Assembly: GCA_963575745.1 (NCBI GenBank)
Contig: CAUYUJ010000114.1
Span: forward strand, 682,001 to 746,000
Reading direction: 5' to 3'
Origin: Prorocentrum cordatum
Taxonomy: Eukaryota
Length of the DNA: 64,000 bases
Below are positions 11,994 to 60,938 of the stretch, piece after piece (within the stretch, counting starts at the first letter, position 1; each line of letters starts with the position of its first letter). The notes beneath the pieces are model-generated. The model worked only from the letters and a program-made list of their open reading frames with translations. It had not been told where the DNA came from and did not search any database. Both the position numbers and the translations under genes were made by a program.

Positions 11994-12022
11994 ATCCAGA
12001 AGCCGCATTAAAGTGATCATTT
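11994..12022 (+). repeat. Left terminal inverted repeat ATCCAGAAGCCGCATTAAAGTGATCATTT
   Basis: Exact reverse complement of 36055-36083. Confidence 0.95.
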
Positions 12023-12134
12023 CCCCCCTCTGTGACAGAGGGGGTGTTTTTCGGACCCCCTCTGTGACAGAGGGGGTGCGTTCGGAGGCCCTCTGTGACA
12101 GAGGGGGTGCGTTCGGAGGCTCTCTGCGACAGAG
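12023..12134. repeat. Left subterminal array of the palindrome CCCCTCTGT-G-ACAGAGGGG (3 good copies, 1 degenerate)
   Basis: Centres at 12034, 12066, 12097 and 12128 (period 31-32 bp). Confidence 0.9.
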
Positions 12135-12558
12135 TTGCTCGTCATCCCGTTCCTCCTCATCCTGCTTCTTGATTTCGGATATGTCATGCTACCACTGCGC
12201 TCATCATCTTTGCGTCTGTGATCCTCGTCGTGTTGTTCCATGCGTCCTTTTCACAATTTCCACCACATTATCCTCCGTTGCCGTTCTGGCCCGCCATCTA
12301 CCTCGTCACTCTCCTTCGTCTGCATGTCCTTATTCTTTTCCGCTCTTTTTTCGCCTCCCTCTGGTTCGATTTCCGCTCTTCGTCCACTTCGTTCATTCGT
12401 TTCCAACCCCCCTTCCTTTCAAGTTCTCCGCCGTCCAATCACGTCGCGTCGTCCGCCGCCGCTATGCTCAAACCACCCCGCGCCCGTGGGATCGCCCGCG
12501 AGCACCGGTGCAGCTGGGCCCGTCGCGGCCTAACGCGCGCCTGCGCCATCGTCTTGCA

Positions 12559-16386: not shown

Positions 16387-19116
16387 GTGGCGCAAGGGGA
16401 AAAGTCATTTGAGCGCAGGGAGGGATGGCATTGCGATAAAGTGAATCCGCAGCCGTTGCAGGTCTGCCCCCCGCCGCGCCCGCCCGCCTCCGCGACGGGA
16501 GCGGCCCAGGGCATGGAGCAGCCTGGCGCGACTGGAGCCGCGCAGGAACCTCTGCCGAAGTCTCCGCAGCAGCGGGGGCTGCCAGAGGAGGCCCCTGATG
16601 CAGTTCCGCATGGAATGGCAGATCCAGCACCGGCCTCCGCAGCAGCGGGGGGGGAGGTTGCAACGAAACTGCGGTCATTGTTTTCGTCGATGTCTGATGC
16701 CCAGGAAAGCGTTTCGAAGACCCTGCTGGTTGCCCAGGAATTGATGCAGAATGGCCTGATCGAAGATGCGCGGAAGTTAACGGCCGCCGCCAACCGCCTT
16801 GTAGTCATAACGGCTGAGGAGGCGGCTTGCGCAGCAGCGGGGGCATCCGTGGAGCCAGGCGCCGCCACAGTGGTAGTCGAGCCTGGACAGGGTGGCTCCG
16901 ATGACCCGAGACCGAGATCTCCCTGCGCGACTAATTGGCAACATCGGCAGGCTCTGATCGCAGCGCGCAAACTGCGTGAAAGCTCCTCCGCAGCAGCGGG
17001 GGCCCGCGTGATCAAGACTCTCGCCTTGACCTCGAAGGCTCGGTCGCCAGCGCTTCCTGTCCAAGAGGGCTTCCCAGAGGAAGGCCGCCCGCACTTCCCA
17101 TCGGAAGAGCGCGGCCCGAGCCATTCCAAGCCTCTTGTGCCCCTGCTGTACGACGACGAAGACCAGGTGCAGGAGGGGCAGACAGAGGCGCGCGTGAATC
17201 TGGCTTTTGCTTCCCTCGTCCTGCGCGCGGGCGCCTCCCTGTCGGATTGGGTCGCAGCTGTCAGGGACAGGCGCGAAGGGGTCGTCTTAGTCTCCTTCGA
17301 GCCTGGTGCACGCATCAATCGCGATCGGCGGAAGCAACATCTCGACGATCTCATCCGCCATAGTGGCTTCCACGGGGAGGTCGCGCGCGAGTGCGTTGGG
17401 GCTCTCCTCTGGGTTCCCGAGCGCGTCGAGCAGTGCGAGGTGCTTCGCTGGCACTGCCACGGGAAGTTCCTGGTTCAGGCCTGGTCGGTGACCCTGGCAG
17501 CGGTGGCTCACAATCCGAAAGCAAAGGAAGGCAAACTCTCCATAGCAGTGGGGGGCGTGTTCTTCCGACACCAGACGAGCCTCGCGGGACAACCGTGGCC
17601 CGAGAACTTCCGCAACGGGCTGCGGAACCTGGTGTTGTGGAACCGAGTGCGTATTCTCGCTGGGATCTTTGACGCAGGCAGGGAGGATCTTTCGGAGCTG
17701 CTCAGAAGTTGCGGCGCGTCTGGTACAGGCGTACTCGGCTTGGCTTTGTGGTGTCCGACAAAAGGTTGCCACGTGACGCACCCGCACTACATCGTGATTC
17801 TTGGCCCCGCTCAGGTTCGCGAGTGCCCTGCGGGCGGGCAGCCTGATCTGCCGCACTGGTTGAATCAGGATTCCCAGCCTCCGCAGCAGCGGAGGCTCCT
17901 CACCAGCCTGCAGTACCGCCAGTTGGATTGGGTGGCGCGTCCGACCTGGGTCAGGCTCACGGACGCGGAGCGCAAGGAGCAGGATACATATGACTGGCCG
18001 CACTTGCACAGGGTGATCCACAAGGCCCAGGATGCGAACCGCCTCACGGAACATTGCCACACATTGTTCGTTTTTGTAGAAGCCAAGAACAGGAAGTCTG
18101 GCAAAGGCGCCGCGGCCAGGAAGAAGGATCGGAAGCGGGAAGCCAAGTGGGAAAAACAGCGGGGAGAGTGGGCGGAGACAGAACCCGAAGCAACAGCCTC
18201 AGCAGCAGCGGAGGCGCACGGAGACCAGGAGGAGGCGGAGACAGAATCTGAAGCAGCAGCCTCCGCAGCAGCGGGGGCGCACGGAGCCCAGGAGGAGCTT
18301 GAGGGCGACGAGGCCCCGCTCTGGATCGACTCCTGCAGCCTCACGCCGCCCCAGGACGAACAGAGCAACCCTGACAGAGGTGAGAGGGAGGAGAAGAAGG
18401 AGAAGGAGAAGATGAAGAAAAACAAGAAGAAGAAGAACAAGAAGAAATATATCAGGAGCAGAACCCCAAAGAGGAAGAAGCCCTCGCAGCAGCGGGGGGG
18501 CAGCCGTTCCACACGCAGAAAGCGGGAGCAGAGGAGCAAAGACCGAATGAGGAGAGTGCCCTCGCAGCAGCGGGGGCGCAGCCGCTCCAGACGCAGAGGG
18601 CAGGAGCAGAGGGGGCGCAGCCGCTCCAGACGCAGTGGGCAGGTGGAGGGCGGCGACCGCAGGGCGGCGTGGGCAGGGCGGTTCCTGCCCGCGCCGCCCG
18701 CGCACCCCCCCCACACAGGTCAGGTGATGCTGAGGCCGAGGGCATGGCGCCCGCTCCTCCCAGGCCAGATATGCCGTCCGCCAGGCATGCCGCCAATGAT
18801 GCCACCACCACCGCCATTTCCCCCGCGTGGAGGAGGACGCCGCGGGGCCCCCCCGCTGGAGGAGACACCGCACCCTACGCCACCGCGGCTCGTCCCGAGG
18901 CAGCCGCCGCACCCTCCGCCGAAGCGGCTCCTGCCAAGAGAGTCGCAGACGCCCCGCCCTCTGGCAGCGCCGCTCGTCCCGAGGCCGCCGCCGCAGCCTC
19001 CCCCGCCGCAGCTCCTCTCCAGGGAGTCGCCGCTTCCTGCGGACACGCTTGCGTTCAACAGTGACGCGTTCGAGGCATTGTCGCGGCGCCGCAGCCCTTC
19101 AAGCGACTCCAGCTGA
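16387..19116 (+). CDS. Cargo ORF2 (~870-909 aa): degenerate EEP-like central domain with K/R-rich and Pro-rich C-terminus
   Basis: Long open frame, first ATG at 16513. LRNLVLWNRVRILAGIFD and HCHTLFVFV align by eye with LATILQDNSVDILCGDFN and AHYPLLFQM of the EEP cargo protein. Confidence 0.7.
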   Translation: MAQGEKSFERREGWHCDKVNPQPLQVCPPPRPPASATGAAQGMEQPGATGAAQEPLPKSPQQRGLPEEAPDAVPHGMADPAPASAAAGGEVATKLRSLFSSMSDAQESVSKTLLVAQELMQNGLIEDARKLTAAANRLVVITAEEAACAAAGASVEPGAATVVVEPGQGGSDDPRPRSPCATNWQHRQALIAARKLRESSSAAAGARVIKTLALTSKARSPALPVQEGFPEEGRPHFPSEERGPSHSKPLVPLLYDDEDQVQEGQTEARVNLAFASLVLRAGASLSDWVAAVRDRREGVVLVSFEPGARINRDRRKQHLDDLIRHSGFHGEVARECVGALLWVPERVEQCEVLRWHCHGKFLVQAWSVTLAAVAHNPKAKEGKLSIAVGGVFFRHQTSLAGQPWPENFRNGLRNLVLWNRVRILAGIFDAGREDLSELLRSCGASGTGVLGLALWCPTKGCHVTHPHYIVILGPAQVRECPAGGQPDLPHWLNQDSQPPQQRRLLTSLQYRQLDWVARPTWVRLTDAERKEQDTYDWPHLHRVIHKAQDANRLTEHCHTLFVFVEAKNRKSGKGAAARKKDRKREAKWEKQRGEWAETEPEATASAAAEAHGDQEEAETESEAAASAAAGAHGAQEELEGDEAPLWIDSCSLTPPQDEQSNPDRGEREEKKEKEKMKKNKKKKNKKKYIRSRTPKRKKPSQQRGGSRSTRRKREQRSKDRMRRVPSQQRGRSRSRRRGQEQRGRSRSRRSGQVEGGDRRAAWAGRFLPAPPAHPPHTGQVMLRPRAWRPLLPGQICRPPGMPPMMPPPPPFPPRGGGRRGAPPLEETPHPTPPRLVPRQPPHPPPKRLLPRESQTPRPLAAPLVPRPPPQPPPPQLLSRESPLPADTLAFNSDAFEALSRRRSPSSDSS

Positions 19117-20851: not shown

Positions 20852-23344
20852 ATGTCCGAGGACATCAAGTCAGGTCCCCTGAATGATGCCGCCACGTTGC
20901 GCAGCCGCTATGCCTTGAAGGACTCCGAGGGCCAGCGGCTGAAGGCCAAAATTTCCTTGGAGGATATCTGCGTCCACCCGCAGAACAGAGGTGGGACGTA
21001 CCCCTCCGCTGCCAGAGTGGTTAATCTCCTGTGTGGCATTCTGAAAGACAGGTTCCTCTTGAACGAGGCGCAGCACGAAGCAGTGGTTGTTCAGGAACTC
21101 CCTGCGGGGAAGAAGGCCGATTACGAGCGCCTCCATGGCAGGCCGTGCACGGCGCACGCGGACCACAACTTGCAGAAAACGAAGTCCGTGGAGGCTCTAC
21201 GCTCGGCGTACACAAGCTTGTCAACGTTCAACTACGGGGCGCTGAGCCACTGCACCCTAACCCTTGGTCTGCTGAACCTCAAGCACGGCGCAGTGTGGGT
21301 CATTCCCGAAGACCACAAAGGATGTGGTTTGGAGGAGTTCCAGACAGGTACAGGTGGTTCCTGGGATATCCCAAAAATGCGTCGCGCACCGAAGTTCACA
21401 GAACTCATGGACGTGCTCGATAACGGTTTGCTTTGCGAGGTGCTCTCGTGGGAAATTCACTTCGATGCCGTCTTCGCGCAAGGCCCCGCGATCATTTCCG
21501 CGGCCCTGAACGACCCACAGGGAAAAGGTGTGACCTCTCACGAAATCGAGGTCCTGACGTCCGTCGCTGATTTCGTCGCCACCGCAGCAGCGGCGGGCAA
21601 GAAAGCATCGTGCGGATCTGAGACAGGACACCCCGTGAATATCTCGTACGAAACTGTTCTCAAGGCTTGCGCGCAACGACATCCCGAGTACGCCAAGGCC
21701 AAATGGTTCGAGGACATGTTTACTTTCGTCATCAACGTGGGGGCCGCATCAGGGCAGCTCATACCGCAAATTCTAGATTATGATCGACGTTGGGTGGATC
21801 ACAAAATACGTTCCCTGGCACCAGCCACCTGGAGCGTTCTCAACCAACTCCCCATAGATTGTCCCCATGTGAAGGTAGCCCTTGTCATGAGGGCGTACTC
21901 GCAAGAGCCGAGGTGCGGACAATGCCCCGCGCCGGAAACGGCTTGGGGACACAGCGAGGGCAACAGTCGGATACAGGAGCTCAATTCTTTGTTGGGGTAT
22001 GTCCGTCGCATATTGGCCCCCGCAGCAGCGGAGGCCCACGGGGAGGAGAAGAGCGCGACTTTGACCGCGGGGGCGGTTCTGACTGCGACGGACACCTTCT
22101 ACCAGGTGTACGTAAGGGTGAAGGCTACCAAACCTCGTCGGGAGGCAGTTGTGGAGGCCGTGTGCGAGACAGTGCGTCCGTACTATGCTGAAGTACGCGA
22201 GGCCTGGCAGAAAATGGAAAAGAACGCACAGAAAGAGTTCCCGCCCCCCCCTGCGCCGTGGACCGACAAGTTGCCCGCGGCCCCCGAGAATCCCGCTGGC
22301 CCTCGCAGCAGCGGAGGTGGCGAGGGCTCTCGCCCGCAGCCAGTATTGATAGAGTTCAACGAAGAAGACAAGCCTCTGAACAGGCAGATGTCTGAAGTGT
22401 CCAAGCCCGTGAACAGCCTGATGGTGGTCCCAGTGAAATCGTGGCACGCTTCGGCTCCGTCTGGCAATCTCGACACAGACAGGTGGCACCAAGCAAGCAT
22501 CGCGGAAGTCATGACTGGCTTCCATCGTCACGCGGACACTTGCGCCCAACCCGTCCAGATGCAATATGACGTTCAAGCCAAGAGTGTCCATGTGGTGGCT
22601 ACTGGGGACATCGCCGAGGGGAAACTGATGCTCTTCCCTTGCTGCCCCACCGCGAAGATTTTCCCGAAAGTCTCGAGCAATCCGCGGGCAGTGGAGGTGC
22701 TAGTCGGTGAGAAACGTCCGACTCCTGTCGAGAAAATGGAAACATATTGGGCACAACCTGATTTCAAATTACCAGAGCTGGAGCTCAAGCCCGCGCCGCA
22801 GGAAGCGGCCTCCGCAGCAGCGGGGGCTGCACAGGGCGAGGCGCCCGTGGGTCCGCAGCTCGACGAGGCGGCCCCCGCAGCAGCGGCGCCTGCACAGGGC
22901 GAGGCCGAACAGGAAGAGAATCCGTACCAGTTTAAGTTCGGAGGTACCGAGTCCTTGCACTTCTTTTGGGGAGTTGAGAGGATGACACCAGAAGAACTTG
23001 CCCGAGCCCAGCTAGTGCAGGGACAGGAGCACTGGAAGTTCAACGTTGCACTTCGACCACTAGAGTTCCAGACAATGACAAAGTGCCCGCCAGCCGCCCC
23101 CCTCCGCGTCTGCAGCGTGCTTGTCCCGTGCATGCACAACACGGTGCCGCTGGTGCGCGGAGATCGGCTGATGCTGCAGATCACAAAGGAGAAGAGGGCC
23201 ACCGACACCCACAAGGAGAAGCAGGCATGGCAAAAGGAGCAGAAAGAGCAGGAGAAGAAACGGAAGAAGGACGCCGAGGAGGGACGGAAAACCCCCAAGA
23301 GCGGCAAGATGACAATCCCTGGCCAGGGGGCCCACTTCGTGTGA
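20852..23344 (+). CDS. Cargo ORF3 (830 aa): N-terminal ParB/Srx-like domain and C-terminal SET-like domain
   Basis: Intact ATG-TGA ORF. ISLEDICVHPQNRGG...VVNLLCGILKDRF...YGALSHCTL resembles the ParB N-terminal fold. VVATGDIAEGKLML and VPCMHNTVPLVRGDRLML resemble SET N- and C-terminal motifs. Confidence in the ORF is high; the domain calls are moderate. Confidence 0.75.
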   Translation: MSEDIKSGPLNDAATLRSRYALKDSEGQRLKAKISLEDICVHPQNRGGTYPSAARVVNLLCGILKDRFLLNEAQHEAVVVQELPAGKKADYERLHGRPCTAHADHNLQKTKSVEALRSAYTSLSTFNYGALSHCTLTLGLLNLKHGAVWVIPEDHKGCGLEEFQTGTGGSWDIPKMRRAPKFTELMDVLDNGLLCEVLSWEIHFDAVFAQGPAIISAALNDPQGKGVTSHEIEVLTSVADFVATAAAAGKKASCGSETGHPVNISYETVLKACAQRHPEYAKAKWFEDMFTFVINVGAASGQLIPQILDYDRRWVDHKIRSLAPATWSVLNQLPIDCPHVKVALVMRAYSQEPRCGQCPAPETAWGHSEGNSRIQELNSLLGYVRRILAPAAAEAHGEEKSATLTAGAVLTATDTFYQVYVRVKATKPRREAVVEAVCETVRPYYAEVREAWQKMEKNAQKEFPPPPAPWTDKLPAAPENPAGPRSSGGGEGSRPQPVLIEFNEEDKPLNRQMSEVSKPVNSLMVVPVKSWHASAPSGNLDTDRWHQASIAEVMTGFHRHADTCAQPVQMQYDVQAKSVHVVATGDIAEGKLMLFPCCPTAKIFPKVSSNPRAVEVLVGEKRPTPVEKMETYWAQPDFKLPELELKPAPQEAASAAAGAAQGEAPVGPQLDEAAPAAAAPAQGEAEQEENPYQFKFGGTESLHFFWGVERMTPEELARAQLVQGQEHWKFNVALRPLEFQTMTKCPPAAPLRVCSVLVPCMHNTVPLVRGDRLMLQITKEKRATDTHKEKQAWQKEQKEQEKKRKKDAEEGRKTPKSGKMTIPGQGAHFV

Positions 23345-23899: not shown

Positions 23900-24087
23900 A
23901 CCCCCTCTGTGACAGAGGGGGTCCCGCGCTTGTCCGCGGGACCCCCTCTGTGACAGAGGGGGTCCCGCGCTTTTCCGCGGGACCCCCTCTGTGACAGAGG
24001 GGGTCCCGCGCTTTTCCGCGGGACCCCCCTCTGTCACAGAGGGGGTCGGGTGGAAAAGCGCGGGACCCCCTCTGTCACAGAGGGGGT
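23900..24087. repeat. Central array of the same palindrome (5 copies, with degenerate copies on either side)
   Basis: Centres at 23911, 23952, 23993 (G centre) and 24035, 24076 (C centre); period 41-42 bp. Confidence 0.9.
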
Positions 24088-24445
24088 CGGGTCGTGCGTT
24101 TCCGCGCGCCCTCCTCTGTGAAACAGGGGTGGTCGTTCGATCAGGGCGCCCCCCCCCTGTGGGACAGAGGGTCGGTCAGAGCACACAAGGCCCCCCCTCA
24201 AGGGGCAGAGGGGCGGTCAAGGGACAGGGAAGGCAGCTGTGCTCGTTCGGAGAGAAGGAGGGGGATGGGTTGGATGAGATGGAAAGGATCTCGTGGAGGG
24301 AGCATGATGCGGATGAGGAGTAGGAGGATCTGTTCGAGACGAGGAGTCCGCCTTCCATAGCCGTTTTCAGGCGGTTCACTTTTGAGGGGGGGCGACACCT
24401 AGGACGCGCGCGCCTTCGCAGCAGCGGGGGCTTGCGCACGGCGGC

Positions 24446-25402
24446 ATGAAACGCAAGGCAGAGGACGCATGGCGGGAGGTCGCTGTCGGGAAAGCAGCGC
24501 GCCAAGATGGCGCGAGCATGGGGGTGATCTGCGCGACGGGCGGGCTGTGCCGAAGTCACGAGGGAGCAGCGGGATTTGCTCTGGAATGCGAGGAGCGCTG
24601 TGTTGTCTTGGGCGGCGAGATGAGCAATGAAGCCTTCGTGCCCGTCGGAAAGCACCGCCTGTGGATGCTCAAAGTGGTCGGTGGCCACAGTGCCGTGAAG
24701 GGCGCCTTGAGCGAAACAAACTTGTTAGAACAATTGTATGAGAAGCTTCGCGCTGGAGAAGGATACAACGTGGATGAAGCGGCGACTCCTGTGAAAGAGG
24801 CCCCCGCAGCAGCGGGGGTTGCAGCAGGGTCTCCCGCAGCAGCGGGAGAAAAAGGTCGGGATCCCATGGCGGATCTCCTTGGCACCGTCAAGGCCGCATC
24901 GAAAGCGAAGAAAACCCCTGAGAAACAGAAAGGGTTTCCTCGAGGCACGCTCTGCAGAGTAACCATGCCGATGTCTCCTAAGCCAGATGAGGCCGACACG
25001 AAAGAGATTTGTGTGTATGAGAACAAATATGGGCAACTACTCGTTCATAGTCAGGACCTGCCTTGGCTTCTGCATTACCTGTGCGAGGAGAGCCAGGGCA
25101 AAAGCGTCCCCGAACCCAACGACGACGACGAGGTCGACGCTTTGGACGAGAAGCGCCCGTGGACCACCAGGTGGTGCCCGTCTGGGATGTGGACACTGGA
25201 GGTCAAAGGAGGGCCAATGGCAGGCCGAACATGGGCCTCCAGGATTCAGGATCTGAACGAGGAGAAATGGTCCACAGGCGTGGCGTTGACGGAAGTGACG
25301 ACGCCCTTGAAACAGTCCACCCGTGCGCAGCAAAAGCAGGTTCTTCTAGCGTTCTTGGAGGACGTGGTCCAGAAAGCCATCAAACAGGACACACAGCAGT
25401 GA
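24446..25402 (+). CDS. Cargo ORF4, hypothetical protein (318 aa)
   Basis: Intact ORF with complex composition; a partial diverged copy lies at 26309. Confidence 0.7.
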   Translation: MKRKAEDAWREVAVGKAARQDGASMGVICATGGLCRSHEGAAGFALECEERCVVLGGEMSNEAFVPVGKHRLWMLKVVGGHSAVKGALSETNLLEQLYEKLRAGEGYNVDEAATPVKEAPAAAGVAAGSPAAAGEKGRDPMADLLGTVKAASKAKKTPEKQKGFPRGTLCRVTMPMSPKPDEADTKEICVYENKYGQLLVHSQDLPWLLHYLCEESQGKSVPEPNDDDEVDALDEKRPWTTRWCPSGMWTLEVKGGPMAGRTWASRIQDLNEEKWSTGVALTEVTTPLKQSTRAQQKQVLLAFLEDVVQKAIKQDTQQ

Positions 25403-25677
25403 TGCCCTCGTTATCCGCTCGCTGGCGCGCGCCGCAGCAGCGGCGCGCTGACCGCTACAACGGCTTTTTTTGTGCAAACAGACTCGGTGCATGCACCGCA
25501 CCAGCGGCGCGCTGACCGCTGAGGTGGATGCCTGCGGGTTCCTGTCGACTGGACAGGGGTTAGGGCACGCGCGGGGGATCGCGAGCCTGCGGCTCTCCAG
25601 CGCTCGCGCGCTAGAGGACAAAAAGGAACTCGCGGAATCTGGCGAGGACGGGGCGGAGGGGTTGGGACCAGTAGGAT

Positions 25678-25711
<34 letters not shown>

Positions 25712-25771
25712 AGGAGGAGCAACAGCAGCAGCAACATCACACTAGCAGCACCGACAGGAGGATCATTGCGA

Positions 25772-26140
25772 GGATGCGGCCGTTTGCTTGCCCTGCGGCG
25801 CTGGGCTCGAGACAAGAGGGCGGCCGCGTGCGCGCGCGCATGGCTTCCGCATCGTGGCCGCCGCAGCCGCTCCGCCCCCAGACCCAGGCGACGCTCGCCC
25901 TGCAAACGCGCCTCTGCGGGTCGGGCACGACCGCGAGGTCAACGAATGTGGAGTTTTTATAGCAACACGACAAAACTAAAGACCCCGACAGAGTGCTCAT
26001 GAATCCACGGAAACTACAGAGACCAATATTCGGATTCGGGTAATTACGTTATGCGCCGCAGCAGCGGCGCGGCTTGCCATTATGAATATGGCAAACGCAC
26101 ATGGAAGAATATTCATTTATGCTCGCAGTGGCCGTGGAAA
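25772..26140 (+). repeat. Degenerate duplicate of the transposase gene 5' region (27650-28010)
   Basis: GATGCGGCCGTTTGCTTGCCCTGC...GCTCGCAGTGGCCGTG occurs in both; offset ~1878 bp. Confidence 0.85.
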
Positions 26141-26308
26141 AGCGACCACAAGAAGTGGTTAGGTTTTGGAGTCCGATGAGAAGTAGGAGGATTTGTTCGA
26201 GACGAGGAGTCCGCTTTCCATAGCCGTTTTCAGGCGGATCACCAGTGAGGGGAGTTGACACCTAGAACGCGGGCGCCTTCGCAGCAGCGAGGGCTTGCGC
26301 GCGGCGGC

Positions 26309-26800
26309 ATGAAACGCAAGGCATCGGAAACATGGCGGGATGTCGTTATCGGGAAAGCAGCGCGCCAAGATGACGCGAGCATGGGGGTGCTCTGCGCGAC
26401 GGGCGGACTGTGCCGAAGTCACGAGGGAACATCGGGATTTGCTCTGGAATTTGAGGAGCGCTATGTTCCCTTTGGCGGCGAGGAAAACCTAGAAGCCTTC
26501 GTGCCCGTCGGAAAGCACCGCCTGTGCATGCTCAAGGTGGTCCGTGGTCTCAGTGCCGTGAAGGGCGCCTTGAACGAAACGACAATGTTAGAGCAAGTGC
26601 TTGGGAAGCTTCGCGTCGGAGAAGGAGGCAACGTGGATGAAGCGTCGACTCCTGTGAAAAACGCTTCCGCAGCAGCGGGGGTTGCAGCAGGATCTCCCGC
26701 AGCAGCGGGAGAAAAAGGTCGGGATCCCATGGCGGATCTCCTCGGAACCGTGAAGGGCGCATCGAAAGCGAAGCAGGTGGCGGCGCGTCGCCAACCATAG
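26309..26800 (+). pseudogene. Truncated duplicate of cargo ORF4
   Basis: MKRKASETWRDVVIGKAARQ...ADLLGTVKGASKAK parallels ORF4, then a short insertion introduces TAG. Similarity is lost after ~26845. Confidence 0.8.
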
Positions 26801-27731
26801 AAAACCCCTGAGAAACAGAAAATATTGTCTCGAGGCACGCTCTGCCTCTCGCTCCGTGCGGTCGTCTTGGGCGGCGTCGGGCCTCCGCTGACTGATTACA
26901 TGATGCATATATGTATATATTGTGTATGTATGGTGTGTCGACGTATATGTATGTACATACGTATATGTGTGTATTTATATATATGTATGTATATATAACA
27001 CGGTCGCAGGGGCGTGGCCCGCGGCCCAGGGCGGGGCCCGAGACTCTGGGACAGGACATAGGGCCTCATCATCGTAGGATGCTCATCATTCTCATCATCG
27101 CCATGATGGGGGGGGAGGAGGGGACAGCTACCAGCTGCGCGCTGGCGCCACCGCCGCTCCCCCGCGCCCGCTGGCGCATCCGCAGTGCGGCTGCGGGAGG
27201 GGCTGCGCCTCAATTCCTGCAGAGGCGGCCTGCAGGGATGTTGCACTTTTGGCGTCTAGTACAAACGCCCGAGCGGCCCGCTTTTTTTTGGGGGGGGCTC
27301 TTGCTTCACGGTGGAAGAGGAGACTATCATCATCCCCCGTGCCGCGTTCGCCTTCCCTCGACGACGATGTCGACGACTTCCTACATTCTGGCCTTGTTTT
27401 CTGGGGAGTGTTCTCGGAGTCGTTCGGGGCGTTCGTTCGTGTGCGCATGCTTCTGAGTTTTCGGCGCGTCGTTCGGGCCGCTCGTCCTGGTGTGAGTCGT
27501 TCGGGCCCCTCCTCACCAGCCCATCTCACAGCAGCAACCCTCGCGAAGCATGCCGACGGTCGTGTTTTTTCAGGCGTGTGTCCGCTGGTCCCCGCATATC
27601 TCCCTTGTTCCTCGTTCCTCCCGCCCCCTTGTACATCCTCCTTGTGGGGGGATGCGGCCGTTTGCTTGCCCTGCAGCGCTGGGCTCGAGACCAGAGGGCG
27701 GCCGCGTGCGCGCGCGCATGGCTTCGGCATC

Positions 27732-29192
27732 ATGGCAGCCGCAGCCGCTCCGCCTCCAGACCCAGGAGACGCTCGCCCTGCAAACGCGCCTCTGCGAGTC
27801 GGGCACGACCGCGAGGCCAGCGAATTTGTGGAGTTTTGGTACCAAGAAGACAAAAAGAAAGACCCCGACTTCGTGCTCATGAACCCACGGAAACTAAAGG
27901 GGACAATATTCGGATTCGGGTACGTTATGCGCCGCAGCAGCGGCGCGGCTTGCCATTATGACTCTGGCAGACGCATGTGTAAGAAGATTCATTTCTGCTC
28001 GCAGTGGCCGTGTCCCAGCGACCATCGTCTGGCGGACGGTTCCGTGGACTACAATAAGTGGTCAGACTTGCAAGCGCCCTGGCATTTAGTGCAATGCGCG
28101 GGCGGGTGGCCCGCAGGAGCGGGAGCCCCCGCAGCAGCGGAGGCGCCGGCCGAGGCGTGCGAGGCCCCTGCTGAAGCGGCAGCGGAGCCGTCGGTGGGCC
28201 CTGCTGAAGGCCCCGCAGCAGCGGGGCCGTCAGCGGAGGCGTGCGTGGCCCCTGCTGAAGTGGCAGCGGAGCCGTATGTGGGCTCTTCTGACGGCCCCGC
28301 AGCAGCGGGTGCGTCAGCGGAAGCGTGCGCGCCTCCTCCTGAAGTGGCGGCGGCGCCGTGCGCGTGCCCTTCTGCAGAGCCCGCCACAGCGGAGGCGTCC
28401 GTAGGTCCTGCTGGCGCGCCTGGCGCCGACGCAATCGCCGAGGCCGCTTCCGCAGTGGAGTCTGTCTTGAAGGACTCCGCGGCAACAGCAGCTCTCGCAG
28501 CAAAGGAGGTTGCCCCTGTCGCTTTCCCCCAACCCGCCCCGCTTGCTGTTCGCGACGTAGCGGAACCCGTGCTTCCAGGGGCGGAAGTTGCGGCAGTTAC
28601 CGCCTGTGAACAGACAGCCGCGACAGCAGGCGCTGCGGTTGCCCCTGCAGGCGCCCCCGCAGTAGCGGGGGCGCCTGCAGGGGCACTTTCAGAACAAGGC
28701 CAGAGGTGCTTCGAGAAATTGATGAAGCTGTCGCGCAGTATTCGCGGAAGGCCGGGGGGAGGCCGAGAGTGGATAGGATATTCTGCTTTCGTAATCTTTG
28801 CGCTGTTGCGGAAGGTGCGCGTCTACGTGTGGGAAGGACGCAACAGAGTCGACCTTTGCAAAGCTGTCTTGCCGCCGTGGAAACTAGAGGAGTTAACCCG
28901 CGAGCCTGCGGTGGACGCGATCGCGTGTTGCGCCGTCCCCCGAGACTCGGGGCCACCGGACTGGGCCCCCGTGTCGGAGGAGTATCCTTTGTTTCGATGC
29001 AATCATTTTATCGCAGGCGTCTCCACCGACTTTGTGGATTTCACGGGAGATGCTTCGACGGTGGACGGTTTCTATTCGGCTCTCGGTGTGTTCGTCGTGT
29101 CCACAGTCGCAGACGGGGACTGCGGTTTGGATTGCATGTTGCAGATGACCCAGGAGGTTTCCACGCGAGAGTCTCGCAGGGAGCTCCGCCAG
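27732..29192 (+). CDS. Transposase gene exon 1 (small Cys/His region, Ala/Pro/Glu repeat, OTU-like domain)
   Basis: In frame from ATG 27732. Ends ...TVADGDCGLDCM...RELRQ at CAG|GA and splices in frame to DIADYI at 29367. Confidence 0.7.
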
Positions 29193-29366
29193 GACAGTTG
29201 CTCTCTCCGACCACCCTGATCCTTCGCTTCCATCTCTGCTGCCCCCACATGCTCTTCCCCTCCTTGTCTCCCCATTCTGCCTTCATGCCTCTCCCATCCC
29301 GCCCTTCTCTCCCCTCGTGCCCTCCCCACCGAGTCTCCTTGCCCCTCCTCCATGCCCGCCCGCCAG

Positions 29367-32300
29367 GACATCGCGGACTACATCGTGCAAAGGGCGCGGC
29401 TGGCGTGGTTCCTCGACGCGATGGTCCTGACACAAGAAGTCACGCAGGATGACGTCCAGGAGCTTCGTCGCCTGCAGAGCGCCTTAGACGACGAAGAACT
29501 TGTCCCGCAGCCTGGCCACGCCGCCCCTCCGAGAGCACAGGGCGTTGCCGCCGCAGCAGCGGCGGCGCCACCTGAGGACTTGGCCGTGGTGGAAGTCGAC
29601 GCCGAGGCTGTCTGTCAGGAGCTCGTGCAAGCCATCCAATGGTGGACAGGACTGACAGACGCTGCGTGCGCCCTGGACGTCGCTCGGGAGTTGATGCCCG
29701 CAGAGCGGGAGGAGCAGCTCTTGAGGTACAGGAACCGCGGCTGCGAGCGCAAAGCCCCCGCCCAAAACAAGAAGCGCGTGGTGGTCCCGTCGCTCCTGTG
29801 CTCGAGGATGGAGATAGCGGGTGCTTTCGACGAGCACATGCGCTCTTTAGGCTGGACGCCTGGAGACCGCTTTCCGTATGGAGGGGCGCGTTCATTCATG
29901 GATGCGTGGGACTGGGGTTCCATGTCCCGTCTCCCTCTCAGGAAGCGCACGCACGTTGTGCGGCGCTGGCACAAGGCTTTTCTGTCGTCGAAATACGCCT
30001 CCGCAGTAGCGGAGGCTGTTCGGCAGCCGCGGGGACACGAGAAGCAGCACGGGCAGGGGCGCCTCCTGAAGTGGAAAGGGCGGAAAAGGATACCACAACA
30101 GGGACAGGGCCCAGCTCGAAAATGCCCTTGGTTGCGGCAAGCTCTGTTTGAATGGTGGAGTTCCATTCGGCACAGTGTGGATTGGAAGATGATCAAAAGT
30201 GGACTGCGAAGTACCCAAAGAGAGCCAGCGAAGATAGCAAGGTTCACGCAAAGCATGCTCCAGACCAAAGCGTTGGAGCTCATGAGCGAGTACGTCACGC
30301 AGCAGCTGCGGATCGGGCAGCGACCCGCCGCCGTGGAGTTGAGGTCGCGCTGGTGGGCCTCCTGGCGCAAGGAATACGGCCTCAGCATGCGGTACCCGAA
30401 CAGGAAGTACAAGTGCCCGCTGCCCGTCTTGGAAGAGCGCCTCGAGCGAGGCTGGCTGAACGTGTTTAGGGTGCGCGCCGCGTGCGTGCTACTCAACGAG
30501 CAGGATCCCGAGATGGAGAACTTCGACCAGTCGCCTTTCCACCACAATGAAACAGGATCAGCTGGCGTGAGGACCCTCGCAGTAGCGGGGGTCGAAGTGC
30601 CACTGGTGGAGTGCCACGGCGCGGTGCGGGAGCGGTGGACGGCCAATTTCATGACAATGAGCGACAAGGATCGACTGCGGAGAGAAGGCCCCCCACCGAT
30701 GGAGTGCACGTTCAAGGCGGAGGGGGGAGGAGAGAAGTTGAGGCCGCGCCTGCTCGAACACCTTCGGCGCCGAGGGTTCGGCAGATGGGTGTCGGCGACC
30801 ACCAGCACCAAGGGGTCTTACCGGACACCGTGCGTGCTCGCGTACCTGGACCGCCACCTCCCTCATCTGCCAGAGCCTCCGCAGCAGCGGGAGTGGAGAA
30901 TTATGATGGCGGATGATCATGGCCCTCACTTGTCCCCGCTTGTGAGTAAGCTATGTTGGTCTCGAGGGTACGTGTTCATCCCGCACGGGGGCGGCGTAAC
31001 CCCAATCCTCCAAACTGTGGACACACATCTGAATCAACACGCCAAGCGCGAGTACATGAAGAGAGAAGGAGCCGCGCTGCTGAGAGCCATGAGGCTGGGC
31101 CAGTGCGTCCCACAGCTGGACAAGTTAGAATGCATTGACTTGATGGTGGAAGTGATGTCCCAAATGAGTCTTCACTTGGCTGCGGCAGACGGGTACTGGG
31201 AAACTGGTTTCAAGGCAAATCTGTGGGATGCGGACTTGGACGCGCGCATATGCAAGGAGGCAGGCCATTTCTGGAGAAAGTTGGGGATGCGTAAGAAGGT
31301 CGCCGCCGCAGTAGCGGAGGTCGAAGAAGAGGTGCAGGCGGGGCGCTTGAGATGGACTTACAAAGACATCATGCGATTGGTCCTCCCGCACCCTCGACGC
31401 GGCCACTGCGACGACGTGTTCGCAAACCTTGGAGACGACGCGGCTCTGGACGAGGGCGACAAGATTTGGCATGGCATGGAGGGGGCGGAAGACGCAGCCG
31501 AGGGTCTCCGCAGCAGCGGGGGCACTGAGGGTGGCAATTCCGTCGACGCCCTCGAAGGAGATGAAGATGATGGGAGCGAGGACGACGACGGGTGGAGCGC
31601 CGCTGGCGAGTTTGACTACGAATGGGCCAATCAAAGTCTCACCGCAGCAGCGGCGGGGGAGAGCGCGCTGGAGGCACCGCCTGGCCTGTCGACGTCTCGT
31701 ATGGAAACTGCGGAGCAGACGTCTGAATTGATGAGAACGTATTCGTCGATCGCTGAGGAGTTGCGCAGCTGGGGCGACATCGCGGGGGCCACGTTCATGG
31801 AGACGCAATTACGGAAAGAACGGAGGCGAGTGCGTGAAGTGTCGAAGGAAGATCCTGGGGTTCAGCGAGCCCTCGCAGCATACGAGGACGCCCGCGAGGC
31901 GACGCTCAGAAACGAGAAACGACAGCGGGATGTCGAGGCGCGGCGCAGAGAAGAGCTAACCCGCCTGGGGGACGACGTAAAGAAAGCGCGCAAGCTGCTG
32001 AGGACACAGCAAGCCAAACTCTTAGACGCAGAGGCAGCCATAGATATCAAACACAGGATGAAGCATGTCGGGTTATCCGAGCTGGGCGCGGGCCTTCGCA
32101 GCTGCGGAGGCGTGGCGGGTCGAACGTCGAGGTACGACGCGCTGAATCGCCTTGCGATTTTGGGTTCTGGGCTTTCTGCAGCTCAGCGGTCAGATTTTGA
32201 CTGGTTTCGGCGGGAATGGGACGCCGCTGGCATGGAGGACTTCGGTGGAAAGTGGCCGGAGACGTTTGCCACATGGTTGCAGAACGTCATAGACGAGTAC

Positions 32301-32405
32301 TTGGGGGGCAACCCGAGAGCTTTCAGCATGTTTGTGCACAGTGAGACGCGACGCCGTCTGTCTGGCTCCCTGGCGCTTGCGCTCCCTGCAGCTGGGGGCC
32401 TCTGA
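29367..32405 (+). CDS. Pogo-like DDE_1 (DD35D) transposase, exon 2
   Basis: Motifs NFDQSPF, IMMADDHGPH and GVTPILQTVD, with 35 residues between D2 and D3. Preceded by a CENP-B-type HTH-like region (LRQALFEWW...SRWWASWRKEYGLSMR) and followed by acidic and coiled-coil tails. Confidence 0.88.
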   Translation, partial: DIADYIVQRARLAWFLDAMVLTQEVTQDDVQELRRLQSALDDEELVPQPGHAAPPRAQGVAAAAAAAPPEDLAVVEVDAEAVCQELVQAIQWWTGLTDAACALDVARELMPAEREEQLLRYRNRGCERKAPAQNKKRVVVPSLLCSRMEIAGAFDEHMRSLGWTPGDRFPYGGARSFMDAWDWGSMSRLPLRKRTHVVRRWHKAFLSSKYASAVAEAVRQPRGHEKQHGQGRLLKWKGRKRIPQQGQGPARKCPWLRQALFEWWSSIRHSVDWKMIKSGLRSTQREPAKIARFTQSMLQTKALELMSEYVTQQLRIGQRPAAVELRSRWWASWRKEYGLSMRYPNRKYKCPLPVLEERLERGWLNVFRVRAACVLLNEQDPEMENFDQSPFHHNETGSAGVRTLAVAGVEVPLVECHGAVRERWTANFMTMSDKDRLRREGPPPMECTFKAEGGGEKLRPRLLEHLRRRGFGRWVSATTSTKGSYRTPCVLAYLDRHLPHLPEPPQQREWRIMMADDHGPHLSPLVSKLCWSRGYVFIPHGGGVTPILQTVDTHLNQHAKREYMKREGAALLRAMRLGQCVPQLDKLECIDLMVEVMSQMSLHLAAADGYWETGFKANLWDADLDARICKEAGHFWRKLGMRKKVAAAVAEVEEEVQAGRLRWTYKDIMRLVLPHPRRGHCDDVFANLGDDAALDEGDKIWHGMEGAEDAAEGLRSSGGTEGGNSVDALEGDEDDGSEDDDGWSAAGEFDYEWANQSLTAAAAGESALEAPPGLSTSRMETAEQTSELMRTYSSIAEELRSWGDIAGATFMETQLRKERRRVREVSKEDPGVQRALAAYEDAREATLRNEKRQRDVEARRREELTRLGDDVKKARKLLRTQQAKLLDAEAAIDIKHRMKHVGLSELGAGLRSCGGVAGRTSRYDALNRLAILGSGLSAAQRSDFDWFRREWDAAGMEDFGGKWPETFATWLQNVIDEYLGGNPRAFSMFVHSETRRRLSGSLALALPAAGGL

Positions 32406-32689
32406 GAGGCGCGGCCCGCCGCAGCAGCGGCGAGGCGCGGGGTGTGAGTTCGGGCAGCAGCCGCTGCTCTTCCACCTGCCTGCGACTGAGGTGCCGCGTG
32501 CGCGCGCGGACGTAGCGCAGGCCTTGCGCAGAAGAAACAGGGAGGAGGGGGGGCGGGGGAGGAGGTGAGAGGAGGGGGAGAGCAGGCAGGGGGAGAAAAC
32601 CACGCGGGTGTCGATCACTCCGCCTCTCCTCCTGCTCTCCCCCCTCCTTCTCCCTGATCTCTCTTGGTCATTATATCATTCCTCTCTCT

Positions 32690-32905
<216 letters not shown>

Positions 32906-33034
32906 CCCGCCCTTTCCTTCCCTATCCGCCCCGTCTTCCTCCTCTTCGCCCCGCCCCCCTCCTTCCACCGCCGTTTCGGCCCCAGGAGTTCGGCTCTGAC
33001 GGCCGCCCCCCCTGCAACGCGGGGGCAGGGAGCG

Positions 33035-35016
33035 ATGGCCGCGGCCGCCAGCAGCAGCAGCAGCCCATTGGGCCCCGCAGCAGCGGGGCCTCGGGGCCGA
33101 CTGACGGCAGTGTTCACAGCGAAATCTGGGAAGGTTTGGCGACCTGTAGGTGGTCAGGCAGAACCCTGGAAGGGTCCTTGGGCCACTGTGCCAGAGAGAA
33201 CCCCCGCAGCAGCGGGGGCTGCGCGGCCTGGCGTCTCAAGCTCAGCAGCGGCGGCGCGATCAGAAGTTTCTACGATACGCACCCGCCCAGGCGACTCCGT
33301 GGTGGGTCCGAGCGACGACGAAGAGCCTCAGGAATTTAGGGGCTGCAGGCCGCCCAACGATGTCGAGCGGCGCGAATGCCGTCTTCGCGACACCGTCCCG
33401 CCAAAGTTCTTCTGCGAAAGAAGAGCGGCTGACGTGAACAGGCCACGGAACGACAACGTGGGCAACCTTTCCGTCCTGTTCGGGAACTGGGGCTCCATGC
33501 CGAGCGAGACCAACCACGCGGACCAGCGGCGGAGACTTGAGTTGCAGCTGCGGCATTGCCCTGCTCTCGTGGCGTGCTTTGCGGAATGTGAGGAGCAGAT
33601 GGAGTCAATCCTACAGCGGCCAGGGAGACCACCGCCGCTGCAGGCGGACGCCCCCGCAGCAGCGGGGGCGTCAGCAGCGGAGGGCCAAAGCAGCAGCAGC
33701 GGTGGGCCTTTTGTCGCCCCCGCAGCAGCGATGGCGACAGCAAGAGGAAGTCGTGCTGCGAGTGTTGGCGATTGCCAACAGCTCCAGAATCGACCAGAGT
33801 ACGAATACTTGACCCTGCGCGGGCGTGAGGACAAGTCCTTGTGCATCGCTGCGCGCGCAAATCTGTGTTACGAAATGCGGCTGCTCCACTGGGAAAGGAG
33901 TGTCGACGGCCACTACAGAACAGCAAGAGGGCGCAAGATGGAAGCGTTCTCGAGGATCATGGTGGTTGAGCTCTACTTCGATCAAACCTACGCCCACTTC
34001 GGCTCGAAAGTGCGGGCGCGCGCGGTGCACCTCCACCGCGACACGGCGAAAAATTCCAGAGGCTTTAACGAGGCTCACAAGACGTGGCGGCCGAGGTTGG
34101 CGACCATCTTGCAGGACAACAGCGTTGACATCCTTTGTGGGGATTTCAACATGGCGCTCACACAGACGCTGCCGAGTCTTCGGGGTCTAGGCATGCGATT
34201 GGAGACGGCAGCAGCGTACTTCTGGCGCGGATTGGACGGCACTCCGTGCTTGGACAGCTGCGGCATCTTCGTTCTCAACAGGCCTGGCGAGTACACCCTG
34301 TGCTGGCCGCTGAGCGCCGTGCACGACAGAGACGAGACGGGGTTGCTCTTCGCACGCAAGTCGGTGATCGGTGAGATCGGGTACCGTAACAGAAGCTAGG
34401 CAGAGGCCCCCGCAGCAGCGGGGGCCGCCACCAGCCCATCATCGCAGCCGACGTACTGGCACCACAGCCAGAACGGAGGCCCTGGGATGCCTTACTCTTG
34501 CTACTACCCGAAAAAAGACGCCCGCGAGCACCTCCAGGATTTACTGACTCAGTCAGAGGAATGCCAACGCAAGATCCAAGAGAAGGAGAGTGAGAAACTG
34601 AGGCGCGCCGAGGCTGAGGCTAGAGGGGGCCACCGCTTCTCGAGTAATCGCGGGGTGACCCTCTTCCGCGCGTTGCAGAAGACGTTCCCGCCAGAGACCG
34701 TGGAGGTGGAGGGGCGCTGGCACGGCGGCGCCCACTACCCTCTCCTGTTCCAAATGCGCATGGCCTGCGTGCGTTCGCCGGGGAGGAAGCGGGAGAGAGC
34801 CAAAGAGAAGAAAGACAGGCGCGCCCAGAAACAGCTGGCAGCTGCGCTCAGGGCGCCGCTGCCGCCCGAGCAGCACGGGCCCGAGCGCCAGGCACCAGAG
34901 CAGCACAGCGAGAGGGACGAGCAAGACGAGCGCGCCCAACAGGCGTGGCGCCCACCAAGATGGGCAGACGAAAGCGCGGACGACGGCCGCGACATGCCCG
35001 CGGCTGGCGATGGAAG
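33035..35016 (+). CDS. Cargo exonuclease/endonuclease/phosphatase (EEP)-fold protein, exon 1, with one in-frame TAG at 34397-34399
   Basis: EEP motifs in order: VLFGNW, FAECE, VHLH, ILCGDFN and GAHYPL. ORFs 33035-34399 and 34487-35104 share a frame and are separated by a single TAG. Confidence 0.7.
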
Positions 35017-35959: not shown

Positions 35960-36044
35960 TCCTCCGTGACAGAGGGGGGGCATCTCAGACCCCCTCTGTG
36001 ACAGAGGGGGGGCATCTTAGACCCCCTCTGTGACAGAGGGGGGG
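35960..36044. repeat. Right subterminal palindrome array (3 copies)
   Basis: Centres at 35968, 36000 and 36032 (period 32 bp). Confidence 0.9.
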
Positions 36045-36054
36045 CCAAAAAAAC

Positions 36055-36083
36055 AAATGATCACTTTAATGCGGCTTCTGGAT
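36055..36083 (-). repeat. Right terminal inverted repeat
   Basis: AAATGATCACTTTAATGCGGCTTCTGGAT, followed by TA. Confidence 0.95.
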
Positions 36084-37957
36084 TATCCTTCGCCTTGATC
36101 ACCAGAAAGAAGTTCGAGCGCCCAGAAAAAGTACCGAAACTCAAGGGCTTTCACGTGTCGGGCCCTGGGAGACGCTCGCCCGACACGGTTTCGACACTCT
36201 TTGGGCCCTTTTCCGGGTGCTCGAAATTTTTTTTGGGATGTGGTCCTTAAGTAAGATGGGAACAACAATTCTGGATGAATGGGGGAGGCCCCGGGGTCCA
36301 GGCCCCGCTTCCCTCAGGGCCTGCTTGTTGGCCAAAGCCACGCGCGGCCCACACGTTTGTGTAGAGCCATTGCTTATTTTCTGCGGTTTAAAAAAAAAGG
36401 ACCCATCTATCCAGCTCCCTGGCAAGTCCCGCCACCATGCCAGCCCAAGGTGTTGGGTTTCGACCCTTCGACAGGGCACGGGTGCCTGTCATGTGCACCG
36501 CCCATTTGAACAGATTTTGGGGTCCTCTTGCGGGGTTCCTTGGGCTGTCTGTCAAGGTGCTGTGACCCGTTGGATTTTGTGACCAGTTGCGTTTAGTTGG
36601 CGTCAGTGACAGTGGCTTGCCCTGAGCTCTTGAGAGGTCGTCTCGGGATTCCCTCCGCTCCTTCTTCGGCCTTTTTGAGGCTCTCTTGGGCTATCTCGGG
36701 CTCTCTTGGGGCCTTCGTGACCGTTTTGGGAGCGTCGTTGGGTTACCATGGGGCCGTCTTGGGCCGTCCAGGGATCTCTTAGGCCGTCTTGGGTCCCTCC
36801 TGCGGGCCTTTAGGGTCAACTTGAAGCCCTCTTGAGACCGTCCTGGGCTGTCCAGGGGCCGTCTTGAGCTGCCTGAAGGCCGTTTTGGAGACCCCTTGGG
36901 CTATCTTGAGGTTCCCTTTGGTCGTCGTGGGGCCACCTTGGAGGCATCTTGGGTCGTCTTGAGCCGACGGGAGCTTGAAAAGGCGAGGATGGGAATACAT
37001 TCCAAGACAATGCAAATCTAAGATGTTGGCCTTTTCGGGCCTTTTTGGAAGCTCTCGTAGAACACTCTTTGCCCGTCTTGGAGGCCTCTGGTGCCGCCCC
37101 GAGGCCATCTTGGGCCATTTGGGAGCCATCTTCGGCCGTCTTGGAGGCATCTTCGGCCTCTTTGAAGCTGCGGAGTTCCGTCTTGGAAGCCATCTTGGGC
37201 ATATTGGACGCCTTGGAGGGCGCCAGGAACGTGTCTGGGCGACGACAGAGCCTCTGGAAGGGGGGGCGGTGCACGCAACTCTACGTGCCCTTTAGGAGCT
37301 CACAGACACCCTGCCAGACAGTACTTGGCATTCTAGCGCGCCTCGACGTGCCAGGGGGCACGGGGGCGGATCGTTGTCCTCATTCTATTATATCATATGC
37401 ATGGGCAGCCGGCAATTCTGACGTCGGAGTTCGGGGACACGGGGCTGGAGTAGAGGGGGTCGGAGGATGGCGCTGCATCCACGAAGCGGCTCGATCTGGA
37501 GTCCGACTATCGCCATGCCGACGTCACCGATGCATCGCCGATGCACCGGCGACGCATCGGCGGTGCGGCGCGATCCGTCGGTATGGTATGTTCGACTCCA
37601 GGACACGCAGCAGATTGTCCTGGGGCGCAAGGCTACCCTCAGGATAGGGGCCTGTAGCTCTGGGGGCCGCGGCTCGGAGCAGCAACACAGGAGCGACGCC
37701 AACAACACGGGGTCGTCTGCGCCGGCATCGGCGCGCAGGCTGCCCGCGTGAGCTCGCGCGTAAGCACCCGCAGGCTTCCGACAGAGCGTGCCGCGCTGGC
37801 TGCCCGCGCAAGCTGCGGCGCAGGCCACCAACCCGCCAACCCACCAAACCACCCCCACCCCAACCCGAAGGCCTCGAGTTGCCCTTCATTTCCAGTGGGG
37901 GGGGGTTCGGGGAACATGGACAAAGCACAGATGGAACCCTTACCCCCCCCAACCCGA

Positions 37958-60395: not shown

Positions 60396-60938
60396 CTTTA
60401 GCTTAGCTTTAGCTTAGCTTTAGCTTAGCTTTAGCTTAGCTTCAGCTTAGCTTTAGCTTAGCTTTAGCTTAGCTTTAGCTTAGCTTTAGCTTAGCCTCAG
60501 CTTAGCTTTAGCTTAGCACCAGCTTAGCGCTAGCTTAGCGCTAGCTTAGCTTTAGCTTAGCTTTAGCTTAGCTTCATCTTAGCTTTAACTTAGCTTTAGC
60601 TTAGCTTTATTTTAGCTTTAGCTTAGCTTAGCCTTGGCTTAGCTTTAGCATAGCTTTCGTTTAGCTTCAGCTTAGCTTTAGCTTAGCTTTAGCTTATCTT
60701 TAGCTTTAGCTCCAGCTTAGCTTTAGCTTAGCTGCAGCCAGCTTTAGCTTAGCTTTAGCTAAGTTCCAGCTTAGCTCTAGTTTAGCTTTAGCTTAGTGTT
60801 CGCTTAGCCTTCGCTTAGCTTTAGCTTAGCTTTAGCTTAGGGGCAGCTTAGCTTTAGCTTAGCTTTAGCTTAGCTTTAGCTTAGCTTTAGCTCAGCTTCA
60901 GCTTAGCTTCAGCTTAGCTTTAGCTTTAGCTTAGCTTC
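60396..60938. repeat. TTAGC/TTTAGC satellite, right part
   Basis: The same array resumes in register after the inserted element. Confidence 0.97.

Follow-up and report, generated by a model that had tools for sequence, protein, structure and literature searches.

A probable permuted OTU-like protease fused to a mariner/pogo-type transposase in a 24-kb mobile element of Prorocentrum cordatum

The 64,000-nucleotide stretch of Prorocentrum cordatum DNA analysed here (the window: assembly GCA_963575745.1, contig CAUYUJ010000114.1, positions 682,001 to 746,000 of the forward strand, renumbered from 1) has a GC content of about 0.6 throughout and carries on its + strand a long gene that combines a cysteine protease with a transposase. 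Two + strand open reading frames (ORFs), 27078-29219 and 29220-32405, lie in the same frame with a single stop between them, and are read here as one gene of two exons separated by a predicted 174-nt intron (29193-29366). Exon 1 (27732-29192) is an open frame of 487 codons that begins with a Met (MAAAG...) equivalent to the first residue of a database paralogue, P0002, and exon 2 (29367-32405) is an open frame of 1,012 codons plus the stop. The spliced protein would have 487 + 1,012 = 1,499 amino acids, in agreement with a first-pass annotation of this DNA that had proposed a polypeptide of about 1,500 residues holding both a circularly permuted OTU-like protease and a DDE transposase domain. 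From the N-terminus, the protein is composed of a Cys/His-rich module, an Ala/Pro-rich linker, the protease, a linker, a helix-turn-helix region and a DDD transposase of mariner/pogo type; exon 2 contains the end of the protease and everything downstream of it, including a coiled-coil-like tail and a conserved C-terminal module that follow the catalytic core. The gene probably encodes a permuted-OTU-like protease for ubiquitin or a ubiquitin-like modifier (Ubl), fused to a transposase.

The sequence landmarks of the protease lie on the + strand where the first-pass annotation had placed them. EWIGYSAF (starting at 28767) and CNHF (28998) precede DGDCG (29112) and RELRQ (29178), and DIADYI (29367) follows the 174-nt insert. 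The insert has GA..AG ends, is pyrimidine-rich (136 of 171 nt counted are C or T, or 79%) and includes one in-frame stop at 29217-29219. An 11-nt direct repeat, CCGCCAGGACA, spans both of its borders (29186-29196 and 29360-29370); within the slack that this repeat allows, the sole cut ending in AG begins with GA and is followed by G. The repeat looks like the trace of an insertion with target duplication, as in introner-like elements, and P0002 also carries an insert at this position, diverged in sequence. Introns of the GC|GA-AG type are described as common in dinoflagellate genomes in the available part of a review (PMC11453091). On these sequence features the insert is predicted to be an intron.

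A search with the exon 2 protein, in which 8,000 candidates were scored, returned 76 proteins at E <= 0.001, many of them 1,320-1,555 amino acids long and none with a name or a Pfam domain. The 31 relatives that have the Cys motif in their first 600 residues were aligned, and in 30 of them ...LR. runs directly into.(I/L).DY... with no insert; P0002 alone reads through one. Because 30 of 31 relatives run through this point, the junction RELRQ|DIADYI proposed in the first-pass annotation represents the normal protein sequence of the family. The gene models of two relatives differ at just this place: P0001, 99% identical to the window protein, starts only at a Met immediately before exon 2, whereas P0002, 80% identical, has the N-terminal region but continues through the insert. 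The GA..AG intron is the reason why the database models begin downstream of the protease in one case and translate the intron in the other, and existing models, as judged from the sequences, miss or garble the protease part. The intron thus flags a gene-model problem in the databases. Since the predicted intron lies between Q158 and D159 and so interrupts protease helix 150-167, splicing would decide the product: a spliced RNA would encode the whole protease-transposase fusion, and an unspliced RNA would give a truncated N-terminal protein or, from an internal Met, a transposase that lacks the protease.

The protease domain is divided between the exons. Its exon 1 part (28707-29192) comprises N-terminal helices, a beta-sheet half with a conserved His, and then the Cys loop and Cys helix; its exon 2 part (29367-29477, to ...QELRRLQ) comprises the remainder of the LR..I.DY helix and the last two helices (model helices 150-167, 171-179 and 185-194). 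Alignment A1 (23 relatives and the window's exon 1 stretch over about 195 residues, in the numbering of the structural model) has G20, H96, D132, G133 and R157 as invariant positions and F24, C135, D138, R153 and E182 as nearly invariant ones. The window copy retains every one of these residues, including the putative catalytic His H96 (codon 29004-29006), the putative catalytic Cys C135 of D-G-D-C-G (29121-29123), R153 (29175-29177) and R157 (29187-29189). When 1.84 billion cluster representatives were searched with a profile of A1, 1,049 matched at E <= 0.001, 668 of them at E <= 1e-10. A homologue search with the A1 profile among proteins of 91-350 amino acids gave 19, and none had a Pfam domain or a name.

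Conservation was counted in 146 new sequences among the 150 representatives listed from the profile search, which are mutually no more than 50% identical; the other four had come up in the exon 2 search as well. H96 is kept in 140/146 and C135 in 140/142, and the Asp and Gly that precede the Cys in the D-G-x-C motif are nearly as constant (D132, 138/144; G133, 141/144). Conservation is also high at D138 (141/142), R157 (127/129), R153 (122/134), G20 (114/114), W38 (119/127) and W54 (113/130), and in the alignments of relatives the His lies 39 residues before the Cys in every member. The His-before-Cys order noted in the first-pass annotation is therefore a family trait and not a chance pairing of motifs. 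Conservation of both residues across a family of mobile elements argues for a working active site under selection for catalysis.

AlphaFold2, given A1 as the alignment, was used to model residues 337-531 of P0004, a relative without the intron. The model is one compact domain, with a mean predicted local distance difference test score (pLDDT) of 96.1 and a predicted template-modelling score (pTM) of 0.91. By DSSP, H96 opens strand 96-102 and C135 opens helix 135-143. Papain-like proteases hold the catalytic His at the start of a strand and the catalytic Cys at the start of a helix. In the model, about 195 residues make up a single compact domain of the papain-like cysteine protease kind.

Among solved structures, the closest in fold is the OTU protease EschOTU, to which the model aligns end to end as a single domain, at 2-3 Z units above CE-clan proteases and with a lower root-mean-square deviation (rmsd). 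According to the available text of Schubert et al. (2020, PMC7396840), EschOTU has an OTU fold with permuted N- and C-termini, so that its His precedes its Cys; the arrangement had then been seen in EschOTU alone, and a viral OTU engineered into permuted order remains active. The same text counts among the conserved features of OTU proteases an aromatic residue for holding the Gly-Gly tail and a basic residue that supports the Cys loop (R76 of wMelOTU, K318 of EschOTU), the latter lying 56 residues after H262 in EschOTU. In the window family the Cys of the D-G-x-C loop stands at the N-terminus of a helix (DGDCG in the window), as in OTU proteases, and in the model the putative general base, the His, lies on a strand of the central sheet. 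The canonical OTU order, Cys before His, is replaced by the permuted order, as in EschOTU and in the bacterial EmcB family. The conserved R153, 57 residues after H96, and R157 are spaced approximately as the basic residue that supports the OTU Cys loop, a likeness of sequence spacing alone. A protein-language-model look-up of the P0004 domain placed clusters of the OTU family PF02338 among its best three rows (0.90 and 0.89), which serves as a lead only. The single-domain model, the residue order, the fold neighbour and the OTU-type motifs together support the permuted OTU domain suggested at first reading.

The first-pass annotation had also allowed that the two motif blocks might be the C-terminal half of one OTU domain and the N-terminal half of the next, left over from a tandem pair. 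A duplication with subsequent deletion is described in the available text of PMC12501173 as a standard way for circular permutations to arise. However, the 195 residues fold in the model as one domain (pLDDT 96) and align end to end with one EschOTU domain, the spacing of the blocks is fixed throughout the family, and the flanks hold no further half: upstream there is Ala/Pro low complexity only, and downstream a variable linker without a His block. The single-domain model and the low-complexity flanks effectively exclude two half-domains, and the tandem origin as such is extremely improbable.

Downstream of the protease, the spliced protein contains a modelled transposase core of 561 amino acids (29784-31466; pLDDT 82). 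In alignment A2 (51 sequences) three Asp residues are invariant, D248, D377 and D413 (codons 30525-30527, 30912-30914 and 31020-31022), in the spacing D-129-D-36-D, and the RNase-H-like core with three invariant acids is that of the Tc1-mariner group. Foldseek matched the model to Mos1 (4u7b_A; E 6.6e-5, prob 1.00) and also to SETMAR and Sleeping Beauty. The window's own exon 2 protein has no Pfam match; among 37 homologues, DDE_1 was found in two (P0074 at 22.2 bits, where the cutoff is 22, and P0073 at 15.7), and HTH_Tnp_Tc5 fell just below its cutoff in four. On the model, the downstream part is a mariner/pogo-type DDD transposase, so that protease and transposase do share one polypeptide as had been proposed. 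Among the listed protease representatives, the transposase core was matched in 18/18 of those that continue for at least 300 residues beyond the domain and in 26/30 of those that continue for at least 200. With both parts present in every one of the 18 of sufficient length, the pairing is constant in the family.

Several results weigh against a permuted OTU reading of the protease. Pfam searches found no PF02338 in the window pieces (threshold E <= 1), in 24 domain sequences (E <= 10) or in 37 full homologues (E <= 0.1), and no OTU chain appeared among the phmmer and hmmsearch matches, by sequence or profile, in the PDB. Foldseek with the protease model gave no match at E <= 0.001 against the PDB, where the weak top rows were CE-clan proteases, nor against the viral models of BFVD. 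The modelled protein, P0004, is 52% identical to the window over aligned columns and is not the window's own spliced protein. Further, the OTU-type acid or amide two residues after the His is missing from the family. Position 98 is Val in 100, Leu in 19, Ile in 16 and Met in 6 of 146 sequences (141/146 together), whereas EschOTU has an Asn there (N264) and most OTUs an Asp or Asn, and A20-type OTUs put the acid elsewhere (PMC7396840, available text). Judged by conservation, E39, D45, E116 and D134 are candidates for the third residue.

Those weak PDB rows favour the chief alternative, that the domain is a divergent CE-clan protease (Ulp1/SENP/NEDP1-like, MEROPS C48-type) in which His natively precedes Cys, with no OTU permutation at all. 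Its activity would be that of a deSUMOylase or deNEDDylase, comparable with the Ulp1 domains found in the transposases of Mutator and Ginger1. The best rows were the deubiquitinase (DUB) of SdeA (E 0.072), Ulp1 (E 0.19) and NEDP1 (E 0.40), and the D-C-G triplet at the window Cys recalls the Ulp1 motif. The alternative is a serious one because the clan has the observed residue order by nature and supplies the next-best structural rows, but it has several results against it. EschOTU scores 2-3 Z units higher, no Peptidase_C48 (PF02902) match was found in the window pieces, the 24 domain sequences or the 37 homologues, the language-model neighbours are OTU and not C48, and the D-G-x-C motif and LR..I.DY helix are of OTU type. 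Ulp1 (1EUV), NEDP1/Den1 (2BKR), the SENPs and the SdeA DUB have an acid after the His and a Gln before the Cys, and the window family has neither. The strand that follows the His strand (124-127) is hydrophobic with no conserved acid, which is a reading of sequence conservation and not of geometry; between positions 97 and 131 only position 116, the start of a helix, is mostly acidic; and position 129, six residues before the Cys, is Thr or Ser in 139/145 in place of the clan's Gln. A CE-clan identity is thus judged unlikely, though it keeps a real share of the probability. Schubert et al. (PMC7396840, available text) regard EschOTU itself as a possible intermediate of clans CA and CE, a point in favour of the CE-clan alternative, and because EschOTU may sit between both clans the choice between OTU and CE is partly one of definition.

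Other points against the permuted OTU reading concern the integrity of the enzyme, and they favour a catalytically dead scaffold or ubiquitin-binding module, or a window copy that is a pseudogene split by a stop-carrying insertion. If the 174 nt are retained, the frame ends at the stop at 29217; contigs of one sequencing run of unknown kind, 90-100% alike over the gene, show no joint across 29193-29366; and the near-identical paralogue P0001 has a database record that begins only at the Met immediately preceding exon 2. In addition, P0026-P0029 have DGDS or DGDG for DGDC, with the Cys changed to Ser or Gly and the His kept, and from their sequences these may be inactive or Ser-nucleophile variants. 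Against this, the Cys (140/142) and His (140/146) are kept in diverged representatives, no other stop interrupts the 1,499 codons of the two exons, the insert is 79% pyrimidine with GA at its start, AG at its end and a G after it, and the ends of the surrounding element are perfect. A dead module or pseudogene is accordingly regarded as improbable, and a permuted OTU-like protease that is probably active in the family remains the favoured reading.

Every structural neighbour of weight is an isopeptidase that acts on ubiquitin, SUMO or NEDD8. OTU and Ulp1 domains are also known from transposon proteins in the available texts of PMC2836005 and PMC9741609, namely OTU or Ulp1 on Ginger1, OTU/VTD in Helitrons and Helentrons, and Ulp1 in Mutator, where they have been proposed to shield transposition proteins from degradation or to act on repair factors. 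These neighbours and precedents are the reason for reading the domain as a Cys-His protease for ubiquitin or a Ubl. A dyad of H96 and C135 would remove ubiquitin or a Ubl from the transposase itself, or from chromatin or repair factors at the transposition site, acting in cis or nearby during transposition. We infer the geometry of the dyad, its substrate and its activity from the model and by analogy.

Alternatively, the protease might act mainly in cis on the long protein that the element itself encodes, in the manner of viral OTU/PLP proteases on polyproteins, and so free, for example, the N-terminal module or the transposase instead of working on host ubiquitin conjugates. The domain is flanked by long flexible linkers in a multi-domain protein of 1,500 residues, as would suit such a role, and a motif R-[STAC]-G-G stands just after the domain in 9/141 relatives (25/141 in a looser form). 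Ubiquitin ends in RGG, and the motif is reminiscent of that tail. It is, however, missing from 116/141 relatives and from the window protein (…ELRRLQSALDD…), the strong structural neighbours are all ubiquitin or Ubl isopeptidases, and no cleavage products are known. A mainly self-processing role is doubtful, and as a subsidiary activity, on the sequences, self-processing is possible but weakly supported; removal of ubiquitin or a Ubl is preferred.

Two further features lie upstream of the protease. The N-terminal Cys/His-rich module (27732-28103; …RRSSGAACH…IHFCSQWPCPSD…) is conserved in P0002, P0004, P0013, P0027 and P0061; Pfam gave no match to it and an Atlas search nothing at or above 0.8, and it is possibly a metal- or DNA-binding domain. 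Between this module and the protease, repeat search and translation identify the Ala/Pro-rich low-complexity linker (28124-28399), which has three repeats spaced by 84 nt.

The gene lies within a 24,094-bp element (11992-36085) that is delimited by perfect inverted ends. The left terminal inverted repeat (11992-12022, + strand) is 31 nt long with TA outermost and is a 100% reverse-complement match to the right one (36055-36085, - strand), which also has TA outermost. Inverted ends with an outer TA fit the TA target duplication of Tc1/mariner/pogo elements, and a single copy cannot separate a duplicated TA from the 31-nt repeat. No inverted repeats were found close to the gene, in a comparison of 26.1-26.5 kb with 32.4-37 kb. 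The window has one full copy of the gene and a partial upstream duplicate of its 5' region, which is part of a tandemly duplicated stretch of about 1.85 kb (24312-26136 and 26175-28012; about 89% identity). The duplicated unit holds a 338-aa ORF (24386-25402, shortened to 26249-26800 in the second copy) together with the initial ~125 codons of the transposase gene (25773-26152 versus 27650-28012).

Two short motifs recur in the element. The 21-nt palindrome CCCCCTCTGTGACAGAGGGGG has 10 matches in the window, where 0 are expected, and clusters at 12024-12107, 23901-24086 and 35990-36042, that is, just inside both ends and once in mid-element, where the cluster immediately precedes the upstream duplicate and may point to a composite or nested structure. 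The 16-nt hairpin motif CCCCGCAGCAGCGGGG has 29 copies (<= 1 mismatch; 0.02 expected), on the + strand only and all inside the element (13264-34423), and reads P-A-A-A-G in coding parts. ORFs of more than 250 amino acids in the element include 11995-13704, 16366-19116, 20852-23344, 24386-25402 and 32516-34399, and Pfam gave no match for four other large ORFs of the element. The last of those listed, a 627-aa ORF, adjoins the transposase gene, and its …CGDFNMAL… recalls by eye the endonuclease/exonuclease/phosphatase enzymes; Pfam gave no match on 32516-34396, and a nuclease identity was not confirmed. A long CT dinucleotide-type repeat (32674-32924) comes right after the transposase gene. In the region of the window from 56 to 58 kb the GC content is 0.47, and lower-GC, satellite-like arrays lie at 56137-57614 and 60396-60937, with an apparent period of about 11 nt and self-match offsets that are mostly multiples of about 11.

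Transposase-DUB fusions and permuted OTU folds are each known, and their combination in a eukaryotic mobile element would be new. In the searchable literature, as far as its available texts go, circularly permuted OTU proteases are reported from bacteria only (EschOTU and the EmcB family). The same literature, subscription journals and Repbase aside, held nothing linking OTU domains with dinoflagellate transposons and nothing on circular permutation of transposon OTU deubiquitinases; for OTU domains with pogo/mariner transposases, it yielded the Ginger paper only. A much broader proposal can be offered only tentatively, and is more likely wrong than right: that these proteins form a very large, unannotated eukaryotic family of permuted OTU fold (> 1,000 clusters at 50% identity), either independent of EschOTU and EmcB or a living CA-CE intermediate, which, in the giant multi-gene transposons that dinoflagellate-like protists carry, serves a pogo/mariner-type transposase as its obligatory catalytic partner. 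If this broader proposal is true, transposition of such giant elements would depend on built-in deubiquitination or Ubl removal. On the favoured reading itself, the domain would be a permuted OTU of eukaryotic mobile elements with more than 1,000 diverged members, none covered by Pfam. The family provides a wealth of natural sequences with which the relation between the OTU and Ulp1 architectures can be studied, and with two activities in one protein it is a clean system for asking why DNA transposon superfamilies repeatedly acquire ubiquitin/Ubl proteases.

With regard to known systems, the window protein shares with pogo and Tc1-mariner elements (the IS630-Tc1-mariner group, including Mos1) the DDD core and the TA at both outer ends of the element. 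Classical pogo or mariner elements are 1-3 kb long, whereas the window element measures 24 kb, has several further large ORFs and one-strand hairpin motifs, and encodes a transposase protein of about 1,500 amino acids with extra N- and C-terminal modules. EschOTU (PDB 6W9S) resembles the window domain in its permuted threading and in having His before Cys. It is, however, a stand-alone, bacterial effector-like enzyme of Escherichia albertii that is 15% identical to the window domain with no sequence-level match, and the window domain belongs to a eukaryotic mobile element, where it is joined to a transposase. EmcB/CoxDUB, presented in a 2025 paper as a second bacterial family with a permuted OTU fold, from Legionellales, has its Cys helix moved to the C-terminal side and keeps the permuted order throughout (PMC12501173, available text). 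Its members are bacterial Dot/Icm effectors, unlike the window family; no solved EmcB/CoxDUB chain turned up in the searches made. Ginger1, Helitrons/Helentrons and Mutator resemble the window gene in having a ubiquitin/Ubl-type cysteine protease within a DNA-transposon protein (PMC2836005 and PMC9741609, available texts). Their domains are recognized by Pfam as OTU (PF02338) or Ulp1 (PF02902), are in canonical order and belong to integrase-like, RepHel or MuDR proteins, whereas the window domain is in permuted order, is matched by no Pfam model and stands N-terminal to a mariner/pogo-type DDD core.

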